Below are positions 49 to 3,826 of a stretch of 6,464 nucleotides of DNA, one piece after another (the first letter of the stretch is position 1; each line of letters begins with the position of its first letter). The translations under genes were made by a program, and so were the position numbers. The notes below the pieces were generated by a model that did not search any database, had not been told where the DNA came from, and worked only from the letters and a program-made list of their open reading frames with translations. The stretch is from Escherichia coli (lineage in GTDB: Bacteria > Pseudomonadota > Gammaproteobacteria > Enterobacterales > Enterobacteriaceae), in assembly GCF_003334255.1 (NCBI RefSeq), contig NZ_QOWU01000101.1; one strand, 5' to 3'.

Positions 49-106
49 AAAAAGGGTGGCAGAGCAGTCACGGAGTAAAACTGATACCGCCAAACGTCAC
101 CAGAAA
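49..106 (-). ncRNA. dicF: DicF small RNA (ftsZ-targeting sRNA of Qin-type prophages), mature 53 nt at 54-106 plus U-tract at 49-53
   Basis: The reverse complement of 54-106 reads TTTCTGGTGACGTTTGGCGGTATCAGTTTTACTCCGTGACTGCTCTGCCACCC, followed by TTTTT (plus-strand A5 at 49-53). This matches the E. coli DicF sequence as I recall it, with about one mismatch; the match is from memory, not from a search. It lies in the expected orientation, co-directional with the repressor-proximal leftward operon. Confidence 0.8.
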
Positions 107-679: not shown

Positions 680-1093
680 TTATGGCAATTTCTTCAGTAG
701 CTCTCCCGAAAGTTGAGTAGTTTTAATTGTTGTTTTGAAATAATCACTGCTTTCACATTTGAGTGATTTCATGGCAATCCAAATGCGGGCCTCTGTGCCT
801 GCATTTGGTTCCAGTTGCTGTAGACGTTTTGCGTCTTCCAAAAGTAAGGCGATAATGTGTTTCAGCTTCTCATCATTTGCTTGATTCTTGTTTTCAGTCG
901 AATTCTGTCCGCCGAATAGGCGCTTCTCTTCATACAGACCTATAAAGGCACGACGCACGTTACCGGATATAGTATCGATGGTTTCCTTTTCTACAGTACT
1001 CAGGTCAAGAGTCGCCAGTTGAGAGCGAACCACATTAGATGCCATTTCCTGGAATGGTACTGGTAAATCTTTAAATTCCATCGTCAACCTCAT
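680..1093 (-). CDS. Hypothetical 137-aa protein, second gene of the repressor-proximal leftward operon; no family recognised
   Basis: Minus-strand ORF whose ATG (1093-1091) overlaps the TGA of the upstream YdfA-like gene (TGATG), suggesting translational coupling. Alternative start at ATG 1081. The predicted protein is helical and charged. Confidence 0.6.
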   Translation of the reverse strand: MRLTMEFKDLPVPFQEMASNVVRSQLATLDLSTVEKETIDTISGNVRRAFIGLYEEKRLFGGQNSTENKNQANDEKLKHIIALLLEDAKRLQQLEPNAGTEARIWIAMKSLKCESSDYFKTTIKTTQLSGELLKKLP

Positions 1094-1245
1094 CAGTCGG
1101 AGTTTCTTGCTAACCAGCGATGCGCGCCAGCTTCGGTTTTAAACGTTTTACTTTTGGTATACGTCATCGCGGTAAACGTGCCGTCCTGGTTGGGAAACAC
1201 GCCGCATACCAGAGATTCGCTGTTGCCAAGATCGATAGTATCCAT
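1093..1245 (-). CDS. ydfA: YdfA-like small protein (DUF1391 family), 50 aa
   Basis: The internal ATG at 1245 is preceded by GAGGT with a 5-nt spacer. The product MDTIDLGNSESLVCGVFPNQDGTFTAMTYTKSKTFKTEAGAHRWLARNSD matches my recollection of E. coli YdfA, the first gene after dicA in Qin. The 114-aa upstream extension in the ORF track has no SD and starts inside a hairpin. Confidence 0.6.
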   Translation of the reverse strand: MDTIDLGNSESLVCGVFPNQDGTFTAMTYTKSKTFKTEAGAHRWLARNSD

Positions 1246-1430
1246 GTTGACCTCATTTCCCCTTAACGCCGGGGGAGCGGAACAAAAACCTGCTGCGCTG
1301 TTATACAAAGTGTTCCCGCCGTCATGTTCATACGCCTCGGGCTGGCTACTTAACCCCTGACCACTGCCGGGTAACTCGAAGTATTGCCCTGCATTCTGTG
1401 GGGCGGGGTGGGTTGGTATGAAAAGAAGGA

Positions 1431-1467
1431 TACCCATAGGTATTTAAAAAGTAAATACCTATGGGTA
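1431..1467. promoter_or_regulatory. Perfect inverted repeat (15-bp arms, 7-bp spacer) downstream of the repressor gene; candidate OL-type operator overlapping an early-left promoter, possibly also a terminator for the repressor transcript
   Basis: TACCCATAGGTATTT (1431-1445) and AAATACCTATGGGTA (1453-1467) are exact reverse complements. On the minus strand, TTTACC-17 bp-TAAATA fits -35/-10 spacing within and around the repeat. The half-site CCATAGGTA recurs at 1926-1934 at the repressor start. Confidence 0.45.
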
Positions 1468-1509: not shown

Positions 1510-1929
1510 CTATGATGCGTTTTGTGCTTTCTTTTTACGGATTTCTTCGTAGATCATATTGTAATACTGTTTTTTCTCTTCAAGAGTTTTTAATAATTTA
1601 TCCGCTTCACTTTCTGGCAGTTCGTCTAAGAGATCTAAAAAAATACGTTGTCGTGGCGTTAGAACCCTTGTTTCATAACTGGAGGCTGTGTTCGTTGATG
1701 ATGAAACGATACCATCCATCCATCCCCGGGGTAACCCAAAGGACTCTTCGATAATCTCCACCATATCATCAGCGATCCGTTTTTTTCCCTTTTTCCCCTC
1801 TGGGTACAACATTCTTGATACATAAGAAGGCTCGCGCCCGATCTTTCTGGCCACGTTAACCGCTTTACCATCGCATTTCTCATCACGAATTTTGATGAGT
1901 TGCTGTCGTCTAAATTCATATTTGTCCAT
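1510..1929 (-). CDS. Prophage repressor, 139 aa: CI-type HTH N-terminal domain with a DicA-like C-terminal region
   Basis: Complete ORF, divergent from the Cro-like gene. HTH segment AVNVARKIGREPSYVSRMLYPEG. The C-terminal LTPRQRIFLDLLDELPESEADKLL resembles the DicA C-terminus (LSPKELELLELFNALPESEQ as recalled). The ATG at 1929 sits 6 nt after a TATTAT -10 candidate, consistent with a leaderless mRNA. Confidence 0.85.
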   Translation of the reverse strand: MDKYEFRRQQLIKIRDEKCDGKAVNVARKIGREPSYVSRMLYPEGKKGKKRIADDMVEIIEESFGLPRGWMDGIVSSSTNTASSYETRVLTPRQRIFLDLLDELPESEADKLLKTLEEKKQYYNMIYEEIRKKKAQNAS

Positions 1930-2029
1930 AGGTAAATAATAGATGCGATTACCGCAAGGTAAACAACCTGTGGGTATTGACTTTTGTTTACCTGCGGGTA
2001 TTCTTTGCTGTGTTTACTAAGGAGTAGCT
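1930..2029. promoter_or_regulatory. Divergent promoter/operator region between the repressor and Cro-like genes
   Basis: CCGCAAGGTAAACAA (1952-1966) and the reverse complement of 1985-1999 (CCCGCAGGTAAACAA) form an inverted pair. A rightward TTGACT (1977-1982), 16-bp spacer and TATTCT precede the SD TAAGGAG (2018-2024) and ATG 2030. A leftward TATTAT sits immediately upstream of the repressor ATG. Confidence 0.55.
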
Positions 2030-2311
2030 ATGGAAGAATTAAGAATATTTCTCAATTCTCTTTCGTCAGATGAACAGCGTATGTTTGCATGCGAGTGTGA
2101 TACCAGCATCGGTTATCTAAGAAAAGCATTGAGTAAAGGTCAAGTGTTAGGGGCATCGTTATGTGTCCTTATTGAGCGAGCCAGTAATGGTGAAGTTACA
2201 CGTCAGCAACTAAGGCCTTTTGATTGGATGAATATTTGGCCCGAGCTGGAAGATACCAAAACGTTAACACAACCACTTTCTAGGAGCTTGATTCATGAAA
2301 ATCAAGCATGA
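2030..2311 (+). CDS. Cro-like transcriptional regulator, YdaS family, 93 aa
   Basis: SD TAAGGAG 5 nt upstream of the ATG. Divergent from the repressor. The segment ASLCVLIERASNGEVTRQQLRPFDW resembles Rac YdaS as recalled (CPAIERATRGEVLCEELRPDIDW). Confidence 0.8.
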   Translation: MEELRIFLNSLSSDEQRMFACECDTSIGYLRKALSKGQVLGASLCVLIERASNGEVTRQQLRPFDWMNIWPELEDTKTLTQPLSRSLIHENQA

Positions 2312-2720
2312 ACACATCCGCATGGCGATGAATGTCTGGGCGCATCCGGACGGCGAAAAAGTACCGGCTGCGAAAATTACCAAAGCGTATTTCGAGCTGG
2401 GAATGACGTTCCCGGAACTGTACGACGACAGCCATCCGGAAGCCCTGGCTCGTAATACCCAGAAAATTTTCCGTTGGCTGGATAAAGACACCCCTGATGC
2501 TGTTGAAAAAATTCAGGCTCTGTTACCGGCGATCGAAAAGGCAATGCCGCCTCTGCTGGTGGCCCGTATGCGCAGTCACAGCTCTGAATATTACCGTGAG
2601 ATCGTCGAACGGAGGGATCGGCTGGTGAAAGATGTGGATGATTTTGTCGCAGCGGCGATCGCCTGGGGCACCCTGACTAACAGTGGTGGTCAGCCTGGTA
2701 ATGCTGTTGTCGTGCATTGA
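2295..2720 (+). CDS. ydaT: YdaT-family protein (CII-like regulator, also annotated as toxin YdaT), 141 aa
   Basis: Starts MKIKHEHI and ends VVH, with an internal KIQALLPAIEKA motif, as in Rac YdaT from memory. GGAG lies 8 nt upstream. The start overlaps the end of the Cro-like gene by 17 bp. Confidence 0.8.
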   Translation: MKIKHEHIRMAMNVWAHPDGEKVPAAKITKAYFELGMTFPELYDDSHPEALARNTQKIFRWLDKDTPDAVEKIQALLPAIEKAMPPLLVARMRSHSSEYYREIVERRDRLVKDVDDFVAAAIAWGTLTNSGGQPGNAVVVH

Positions 2721-2788
2721 CCAACAATATTCATGCCGGATTTCTTCCGGATGTTCGAGGGTAAAGTTCGGTATCAGATGAGGTGAGT

Positions 2789-3826
2789 ATGGCTAATGCC
2801 TGGCTCAGATTGTGGCATGACATGCCAAATGATCCCAAATGGCGAACCATTGCCAGGGTCTCAGGACAGCCAATCGCAACAGTGATGGCGGTGTATATCC
2901 ACCTTCTGGTGAGTGCGTCACGAAATGTCACGACATGTCACGGCGTGTCACTACGTGGTCACATTGATGTCACGACGGAAGATTTAGCAAGTGCGCTTGA
3001 TGTGACGGAAGACGTAATTGATTCAATTTTGCATGCAATGCAGGGGCGGGTTCTGGATGGTGACCTTATTTCCGGATGGGAAAAACGTCAGGTGCTGAAA
3101 GAGGACAATGGTAACGTTTCGCAAACGGCAAAATCCCCGGCAGAGCGCAAGAGAGCGCAGCGGGAGCGCGAAAAGCTGCGGAAATATGATGCTGATTGTC
3201 ACGATGAGTCACGACGTGTCACGCATCTGTCACGACAAGTCACGACAGATAAAGATACAGATACAGAATTAAACCCCACACATAACGCGCGCATGCGCGA
3301 GAGTGCTCCAACCGGTGAGTCGCATGGTGCGCCGTTGCAGACAGCCGAACCTGAATACCTGGACGGCCTGAGCGAACCGATCGGGAAATTTTCGATGACT
3401 ACTGTCTGGCAGCCGTCGTCGGATTTTCGACAACGGGCAGCAGTGTGGGGTATGGCTCTGCCTGAGCCGGAATTTACACCTGCTGAGCTTGCCGCATTCC
3501 GGGATTACTGGATGGCGGAGGGGAAGGTTTTCACACAGGTTCAGTGGGAGCAGAAATTTGCCCGCCACGTGCAGCACGTCAGGACACAGGTAAAACCAGT
3601 CAGCAAGGGGGTAAGCCATGCAGCATCAGGTGGCACGGCATCACGGGCAGTTCAGGAAATCCGGGCAGCACGCGAACAGTGGGAACGAGACAACGGATTT
3701 ATCAGCAACGGAAATGGCCTGGAAGCTGTGGGAGCTTATGGGGGAGGTGTATTCGAACCGCTGGACTCAGAAGAACGGGGCCGCACCTTCGAAGCTCTGG
3801 ATTGCCCAGATTGGCACGATGACTGA
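2789..3826 (+). CDS. Phage replication initiator (lambda O-like, iteron-binding replisome organiser)
   Basis: Long ORF immediately upstream of the P-like gene. Two arrays of GTCACG iterons are embedded in its coding sequence, as in lambda O/ori. ATG 2789 is preceded by GAGG; the GTG at 2783 is an alternative start. Confidence 0.8.
   Translation: MANAWLRLWHDMPNDPKWRTIARVSGQPIATVMAVYIHLLVSASRNVTTCHGVSLRGHIDVTTEDLASALDVTEDVIDSILHAMQGRVLDGDLISGWEKRQVLKEDNGNVSQTAKSPAERKRAQREREKLRKYDADCHDESRRVTHLSRQVTTDKDTDTELNPTHNARMRESAPTGESHGAPLQTAEPEYLDGLSEPIGKFSMTTVWQPSSDFRQRAAVWGMALPEPEFTPAELAAFRDYWMAEGKVFTQVQWEQKFARHVQHVRTQVKPVSKGVSHAASGGTASRAVQEIRAAREQWERDNGFISNGNGLEAVGAYGGGVFEPLDSEERGRTFEALDCPDWHDD
2915..2978. 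repeat. Iteron array 1: six direct repeats of (t)GTCACGAc at 10-11 bp spacing
   Basis: GTCAC begins at 2917, 2927, 2937, 2947, 2958 and 2969, i.e. one helical turn apart. Confidence 0.7.
3196..3248. repeat. Iteron array 2: five direct repeats of (t)GTCACGAC at 10-11 bp spacing, followed by an AT-rich segment
   Basis: GTCAC begins at 3198, 3208, 3218, 3229 and 3239. The AT-rich stretch AGATAAAGATACAGATACAGAATTAAA (3247-3273) and the 12-bp palindrome CGCGCATGCGCG (3288-3299) follow. Confidence 0.7.

Follow-up and report, generated by a model that had tools for sequence, protein, structure and literature searches.

In the CP-933P immunity switch (PaaR2/YdaS/YdaT), 5′ RACE, N-terminal sequencing and mass spectrometry established that the paaR2 mRNA is leaderless, with transcription starting at the ATG, and that it is translated (Jurenas et al. 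2021, PMC8630535). The footprints of PaaR2 and YdaS overlap, and low PaaR2 activates the repressor promoter PRM while repressing the rightward promoter PR (PMC8630535). YdaT has been footprinted on the site OM, TTGATT-N6-AATCAA (Prolic-Kalinsek et al. 2023, PMC9986795). Here we describe a related divergent control region in a 6,464-nucleotide stretch of Escherichia coli DNA (assembly GCF_003334255.1, contig NZ_QOWU01000101.1), hereafter the window, where a repressor gene and a cro gene lie back to back.

We are fairly confident of the following reading as a whole: the gap between the two genes is the right operator region (OR) of a lambda-type bistable immunity switch, a single operator family, TACC-YRYR-GGTA, occupies both OR and the left operator region (OL), and the repressor is translated from a leaderless PRM mRNA. 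The switch belongs with the known lambdoid (CP-933P / mEp043 / Qin-like) immunity switches, and its mechanism is not of a new kind. An earlier reading of the same DNA, made from the letters alone (the sequence-only reading), is partly supported: its divergent control region and leaderless transcript hold up, while its two families of operators do not. The features of the region, in order along the window, are as follows.

1510-1929, minus strand: repressor gene, 139 aa; phrog_5736 'transcriptional regulator', E 6e-70
1923-1934: site A, TGTCCATAGGTA; weak, with two core mismatches; covers the start codon of the repressor and the predicted PRM start
1930-2029: divergent control region, the 100-bp gap between the repressor gene and cro
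1963-1958 and 1941-1936, minus strand: predicted PRM, -35 TTTACC, 16-nt spacer, -10 TATTAT; from the promoter scan; the -35 overlaps the right arm of site B
1950-1961: site B operator, TACCGCAAGGTA; exact motif match; overlaps the PRM -35 and spacer; centre 1955.5, at -26.5 from the predicted PRM start
1965-1976: site C operator, AACCTGTGGGTA; one mismatch, intrinsically weaker; abuts the PR -35; centre 1970.5, at -41.5 from the predicted PRM start
1977-1982 and 1999-2004, plus strand: predicted PR, -35 TTGACT, 16-nt spacer, -10 TATTCT; from the promoter scan; predicted start about 2011
1989-2000: site D operator, TACCTGCGGGTA; exact match; between the PR hexamers, overlapping the -10; centre 1994.5, at -65.5 from the predicted PRM start
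2019-2024, plus strand: cro Shine-Dalgarno (SD) sequence AAGGAG, 5 nt from the ATG; read off the sequence
2030-2311, plus strand: cro, YdaS-type, 93 aa; PDB 8c7k / 8co2 'Cro', E 1e-9

The CP-933P locus, fetched via a paaR2 5′ end rebuilt from the primer table of the published study, has the same layout. In both loci, a short repressor gene and a YdaS-type Cro gene diverge (gap of 97 bp in CP-933P and 100 bp here), the PR -35 is TTGACT, repeated palindromes lie over both promoters with a second set at the leftward promoter PL, YdaT has an intact operator at the cro/ydaT junction, and the repressor has a PaaR2/DicA-like C-terminus without an S24 domain. The PRM of CP-933P reads GATAAT, TACCAC (6 nt) and ATG, matched here by the -10 hexamer, 6 nt and ATG. 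The operators differ, being GTTTAGTAA in CP-933P and TACC-N4-GGTA here, so that the two switches are presumably heteroimmune. In addition, a paaA2-parE2 toxin-antitoxin pair is present 3′ of the repressor gene in CP-933P and co-transcribed with it, whereas none lies between the repressor gene and OL here, OL coming immediately after the repressor gene.

Phage mEp043 (PV340537 / NC_019706) shares with this locus the repressor DNA-binding domain, the Cro family, TACC-N4-GGTA sites at the same OR and OL positions, and the leaderless geometry (TAGAAT, 6 nt, ATG). Its cI differs in having 228 aa with a C-terminal LexA/S24-type domain, where the present repressor carries a 50-aa DicA/PaaR2-type helical tail; lambda-type CII and N are encoded there, and YdaT and dicBF here. 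The immunity region of phage CharmingMan is also related.

As in lambda OR, three operators lie over divergent PR and PRM, the middle site is weak, and a second operator set is found at PL; the lambda cI mRNA from PRM is likewise leaderless. Sites D and C are 24 bp apart, like OR1 and OR2, and their distances of -65.5 and -41.5 from the PRM start are those of lambda OR1 and OR2. The likeness does not extend to protein or operator sequence, and the core site has 12 bp where that of lambda has 17 bp. Site B, the third one, matches the motif perfectly and is 15 bp from C, compared with 23 bp in lambda, the repressor lacks a RecA-cleavable domain, and the CII analogue is YdaT.

The operator motif emerged from lining up the repeat copies, which gave a 12-bp palindrome, TACC-N4-GGTA, as the true repeat unit. 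Exact copies occur four times in the 6464 bp (at 1431, 1456, 1950 and 1989; 0.04 expected), a number reached by 0/200 shuffles, and all four fall within the two control regions (the OR gap and the hairpin at 1431-1467). Allowing one mismatch adds a fifth copy at 1965, inside OR. Repeat pairs D4, D7, I1, I3, I7 and I8 connect strings in OR with the hairpin. The inverted pair of the sequence-only reading is real: its first arm, CCGCAAGGTAAACAA, is at 1952-1966 as described, and its inverted copy is also present, with a best ungapped span of 1984-1998, one base further left than the 1985-1999 originally given. The reverse complement of 1984-1998 is CCCGCAGGTAAACAA, which matches CCGCAAGGTAAACAA at 12/15 positions without gaps. 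The repeat search returns this pair as I4, two arms of 20 nt (1947-1966 and 1984-2003) that are 80% complementary and separated by 17 nt. The long arms depend in part on C at position 1995, which is a minority allele (T in 72/80 near-identical relatives), and are to that extent peculiar to this copy.

The motif is conserved in related loci, namely nine that were fetched and the phages mEp043 and CharmingMan; the alignments use 11 loci with a divergent cro, which span Salmonella, Serratia, Yersinia, Pantoea, Edwardsiella, Leclercia, a metagenome and the two phages. In these 11 loci the gap between the repressor gene and cro is ∼100 bp and TACC-N4-GGTA sites occupy the same three places, at fixed spacings (D-C 24-25 bp, C-B 15 bp, and 25-26 bp for the OL pair). 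Across the loci, 44 strong sites have arms that are 99-100% invariant, while N4 is free with YRYR favoured. The arms of site D are invariant, and those of site B nearly so, the sole lapse being the first T in the metagenome locus. In site C, the GGTA arm beside the PR -35 is invariant and the other arm is degenerate in 10/11 loci. The invariant gap columns in alignment A1, the alignment of the 11 intergenic regions, comprise the B, C and D arms, the AA completing TTTACC, TTG in the PR -35, the terminal T of its -10, a G of the SD sequence and the two start codons; other invariant columns occur only in the flanking coding sequence (e.g. a base of the repressor Asp codon and two bases early in cro).

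A further 80 viral-contig copies from IMG/VR, which are 99-100% identical to the locus and hence of no use for covariation, served for polymorphism only. Among them, 6 of the 12 N4 positions (1954-1957, 1969-1972 and 1993-1996) are polymorphic, compared with 2/24 arm positions and ∼7/64 other intergenic positions.

A Klebsiella contig (L088, Logan SRR22048721) encodes an S24-type homologue without a recognisable divergent cro, beside a host gene for pyruvate-ferredoxin oxidoreductase. TACC-N4-GGTA sites are retained there, upstream at 1955 and 1995 and as a downstream pair (2932 and 2957), and the contig looks like a truncated prophage end.

Site A, over the repressor start codon, matches OL1 at 12/14 positions. 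Its right arm is missing in 9/10 other loci and degraded to AGTA in the closest, Salm85. As a conserved operator it was rejected, being lineage-specific and absent from most relatives, and any function for it is speculative.

The view of the gap as a divergent control region, with back-to-back promoters between the repressor gene (1510-1929, minus strand) and the YdaS-type Cro gene (2030-2311, plus strand), is supported, PR and PRM being the only sigma-70-like promoter matches of a consensus scan in 1300-2400. TTGACT, previously picked out as the rightward -35 candidate, pairs with TATTCT, and the minus-strand TATTAT ends 6 nt short of the repressor ATG, as had been noted. T26 and A27 of the PRM -10 are nearly invariant in alignment A1, and a purine-rich block is aligned at the cro SD position in all loci.

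A leaderless repressor mRNA, also proposed in the sequence-only reading, finds strong indirect support in the geometry of PRM. All 11 loci have the same succession of a -35, 16-17 nt, a -10 hexamer, 6-7 nt and the ATG. The -35, TTTACC, is invariant and lies 28-30 nt from the ATG of MDKYE. The -10 hexamers vary (TATTAT, TAAGAT, TAGAAT, TAGGAT, TAAACT, GATACT, TATGAT, AAAAAT), conforming to TAnnnT in 9/11 loci and to 4-5 of the six bases of TATAAT in all, and the 6-7-nt spacers between the -10 and the ATG also differ in sequence. Reading from the in-frame stop, the first start codon is the repressor ATG (A at 1929), and no upstream in-frame start is possible. No SD-like tetramer is found in the 20 nt 5′ of the ATG, nor is any usably placed in the 11 loci, and the PHROG 5736 profile alignment begins at repressor residue 1. 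Taken with the CP-933P precedent, this suggests that PRM transcription should begin on the A of the repressor start codon, or 1 nt from it at most.

In three loci the called repressor starts are upstream of or inside the conserved PRM -10 (Pantoea L089, MMSDMDKYE; Leclercia L091, MSGMDKYE; CharmingMan L095, MKAMDKYE). These starts are probably mis-called, and the conserved MDKYE, 7 nt past the -10, looks to be the true start.

The repressor combines an mEp043-CI-type N-terminal helix-turn-helix (HTH) domain (76% identity to mEp043 cI over residues 1-72) with a C-terminus of another kind, the last 46 residues being 33% identical to DicA. Its similarity to PaaR2 is remote (23% identity over 90 aa, pairwise E 8e-9) and mainly involves the second half of the HTH and the C-terminal helices. 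An AlphaFold2 model (predicted local distance difference test score, pLDDT, 84) shows the N-terminal HTH, a disordered linker at 76-86 and a C-terminal helical hairpin. Foldseek neighbours of the model are phage and XRE-type HTH repressors with weak E-values, and a PDB sequence search with the repressor gave chance-level matches only. In protein searches, residues 1 to ∼85 recur in two settings: full-length homologues of 135-140 aa (53-85% identical), and LexA/S24-type prophage repressors of 221-242 aa in Salmonella, Klebsiella, Pantoea, Edwardsiella, Leclercia and others (60-80% over the DNA-binding domain). The nearest relatives in cultured phages are mEp043 cI and CharmingMan. The 139-aa repressor has no LexA/S24 domain, in contrast to the many homologues that share its DNA-binding domain and carry PF00717, and direct RecA-dependent cleavage is therefore unlikely.

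Assignment of the Cro-like protein to the YdaS family, as first proposed, is supported by 35% identity to CP-933P YdaS. The Cro proteins of all 11 aligned loci belong to a single family, marked by a conserved CGTSIGYLRKALS helix. The repressor C-terminus, by contrast, is of either the S24 peptidase or the DicA/PaaR2 type, depending on the locus. The DNA-binding domain is thus kept together with the Cro family and the operators, all of which move as one module.

In the proposed mechanism, the repressor would bind the TACC-N4-GGTA sites via its N-terminal HTH domain. Cooperative binding at D and C would cover the PR -10 and the region upstream of the -35, turning off cro-ydaT and the replication genes, and the dimer at C would stimulate PRM, like lambda CI at OR2. 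Occupancy of B (and A) would shut PRM. By analogy with lambda and with the overlapping CP-933P footprints, the YdaS-type Cro most likely shares these sites with a different order of preference, which would be the opposite of that of the repressor.

Several observations weigh against this scheme. The perfect site B is centred at -26.5 of PRM, where tight repressor binding would repress rather than activate, making the roles of B and C uncertain; moreover, B and C, being only 15 bp apart, may not be occupied together. An arm of site B is altered (1953, C to T) in 9/80 near-identical copies. The repressor recognition helix (PSYVSRML) bears no obvious resemblance to that of Cro (SIGYLRKAL), in contrast to the helices of PaaR2 and YdaS, so that shared operator use by Cro rests on analogy and on the lack of another conserved motif. 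The promoters found in the scan (2) are as many as in the average shuffle, which makes the scan non-significant by itself, and placement and conservation carry the weight. Finally, a literature search found no binding, operator or start-site work on this sequence, its RefSeq proteins or mEp043.

The main point on which the sequence-only reading fails is its proposal of two repeat families, CCATAGGTA and GGTAAACAA, that would serve the repressor and the Cro/YdaS-like protein as distinct operators. Both strings do recur (repeat pairs D4 and D8), the two recognition helices differ, and some phages, such as PY54, are reported to have a Cro with a single site of its own (PMC4488713). However, the strings turn out to be overlapping views of one palindrome and its flanks: CCATAGGTA is the N4 and right arm of OL1 and of site A, and GGTAAACAA consists of a flank plus the right arm of B or, read as the reverse complement, of D, so that together they give no sign of two operator sets. 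The AAACAA flank is unconserved at site D in other loci, alignment A1 leaves no other conserved element in the 11 intergenic regions for a second operator family, and the PaaR2 and YdaS footprints overlap in CP-933P (PMC8630535). Distinct operators for the repressor and Cro appear improbable on these grounds. That the repeats reflect chance similarity in an AT-rich intergenic region can draw on the inexact copies of GGTAAACAA, which with one mismatch allowed number four against 1.6 expected (17/200 shuffles as high; non-significant). Exact GGTAAACAA is found twice in the window, at 1958 (plus) and 1984 (minus), where 0.04 copies are expected and 1/200 shuffles reach two. A chance origin is refuted by the shuffle result for TACC-N4-GGTA and by the conservation of site positions in 11 independent loci from at least six genera, and has a negligible probability.

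An RNA or DNA hairpin (terminator or attenuator) in place of protein sites would fit the folding of 1940-2010 as RNA, which is better than that of shuffles (-23.1 kcal/mol, z = -3.5), and a small terminator-like stem at 1944-1956 on the minus strand. Any palindromic site array folds well in silico, however, and here it is the sequence of the arms that is kept across loci, with uncompensated changes in N4 and the flanks, a pattern expected of protein sites and not of a helix. Furthermore, the repeat lies between the predicted starts (1929 leftward and about 2011 rightward), so that neither promoter would transcribe it. For these reasons the hairpin role was rejected as very improbable. A leadered repressor mRNA is a somewhat more serious alternative, though still an unlikely one. 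It would come from an upstream promoter (a YdaT-activated PRE-type promoter in cro, or another PRM), with SD-less or long-leader translation. In CP-933P, a YdaT-dependent PRE at the ydaS/ydaT junction reads towards paaR2 (PMC8630535, PMC9986795), and the YdaT operator is intact here. A leadered transcript is probably made during establishment, as for lambda cI from PRE, but such a transcript would add to the leaderless PRM transcript without replacing it. The fixed distance from -10 to ATG in 11/11 loci, together with the mapped CP-933P start, points to a maintenance transcript that begins at the ATG.

The single operator family extends to the left of the repressor gene, where the following features are found.

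54-105, minus strand: DicF small RNA; Rfam RF00039, 70.1 bits (gathering score 48)
1093-1245, minus strand: DUF1391 (ydfA-like) gene
1420-2282: immunity cassette (OL/PL, repressor gene, OR/PRM/PR and cro), block-swapped relative to CP-933P
1427-1455, minus strand: predicted PL (dicBp analogue), -35 TTTACT at 1455-1450, 17-nt spacer, -10 TATCCT at 1432-1427, start about 1420; read off the sequence
1431-1442: OL1 operator, TACCCATAGGTA; exact TACC-N4-GGTA; left end overlaps the predicted PL -10
1456-1467: OL2 operator, TACCTATGGGTA; exact TACC-N4-GGTA; abuts the predicted PL -35

We infer that PL is a promoter from its design, which is the same as that of PR (OL2, TTTACT, spacer, and OL1 over TATCCT). 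Its score is under the promoter-scan threshold. The layout (a site, TTGACn/TTTACn/TAGACA, and a site overlapping a TAnnnT hexamer) is present in 12 loci, and an OL-type pair of sites, 25-26 bp apart, is found 3′ of the repressor gene in all related loci. As inverted repeats (pair I2), OL1 and OL2 make up a perfect 16-bp stem closed by a 5-nt loop (RNA fold -22.5 kcal/mol, z = -7.5), which scored as terminator-like on both strands. In 65/80 close relatives, position 1460 is C and the perfect stem is broken there. The hairpin is 43 nt past the repressor stop codon and is followed by a T-run on the minus strand; it may double as a terminator of the repressor transcript.

DicF was matched on the minus strand, and the leftward operon under OL/PL control thus carries dicF, along with the ydfA-like gene and dicB; dicB is just beyond the left end of the window. 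With PL repeating the design of PR, the repressor would be the functional counterpart of DicA at dicBp (PMC10448788). The Qin dicA-dicC-dicBp locus of E. coli K-12 (PMC10448788) similarly has a short repressor with a DicA-like C-terminus and no RecA cleavage site, a repressor gene followed by a PL-type promoter driving ydfA (DUF1391), dicF and dicB, and a lambda-like bistable switch. It differs in its N-terminal DNA-binding domain and operators, which are unrelated, in its Cro, which is YdaS-type here and not DicC (E 0.86), and in the absence of YdaT between dicC and ydfX/ydfW.

The ∼175 nt separating the predicted PL start from the start codon of DUF1391 (1245-1420, minus strand) are 92% conserved with CP-933P and form part of a 114-aa open reading frame (1093-1437) that the Prokaryotic Genome Annotation Pipeline (PGAP) leaves uncalled. 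This stretch could be a long leader or a nut-like region.

In E. coli JE86-ST05, a lambdoid prophage inserted beside yccA matches the window at 100% identity. Comparison with CP-933P by blastn gives 92% identity over 1256-1419, 97% identity over 2283-2650 and no match between, with sharp mosaic junctions at 1419/1420 (the predicted PL start) and 2282/2283 (∼10 codons before the cro stop). Among 5426 complete E. coli genomes, 822 carry the cassette at a coverage of at least 80%; strains with the cassette include JE86-ST05, O55:H7 DEC5A and UPEC clone D i2. In a megablast of the cassette against 50,697 phage records, no phage with the immunity region was found, the ydaT junction alone being matched.

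These features can be brought together in a more detailed picture, which we offer tentatively and regard as possible rather than probable. The repressor would be a natural domain swap, in which a CI DNA-binding domain of the mEp043 type, accompanied by its own Cro and operators, has acquired a DicA/PaaR2-type oligomerisation tail in place of S24; the switch would be blind to the SOS response, the invariant 15-bp B-C spacing could keep B and C from being occupied at once, and the hypervariable N4 could tune the affinities. If so, it would represent an SOS-blind version of a known immunity specificity, guarding dicF/dicB in ∼15% of E. coli genomes, and such exclusion between B and C would set its switch logic apart from that of lambda OR2/OR3. 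The analysis gives a precise operator map (B, C, D, OL1 and OL2) for a module that is found in about one in seven complete E. coli genomes and is annotated merely as "hypothetical protein" or "transcriptional regulator". The leaderless-repressor design, shown by experiment for lambda cI and CP-933P paaR2, is also extended to a third specificity group that is widespread across several enterobacterial genera. That the same DNA-binding domain, Cro and operators occur with either of two repressor C-termini speaks to the modular evolution of inducibility.

To the right of the cassette, cro is followed by a gene of the CP-933P type.

2295-2720, plus strand: YdaT; PDB 8bt1, E 7e-83; 91% identical to CP-933P YdaT

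An exact YdaT primary operator, TTGATT-N6-AATCAA, is at 2288-2305, across the ydaT start codon (ATG at 2295) and just outside the cassette, to the right of the junction at 2282/2283. Replication genes lie 3′ of ydaT. Clusters of GTCACG iterons with 10-nt phasing, at 2917-2976 and 3188-3254 within the DnaT-like/O-like replication gene (2783-3826), probably mark the replication origin of the prophage.

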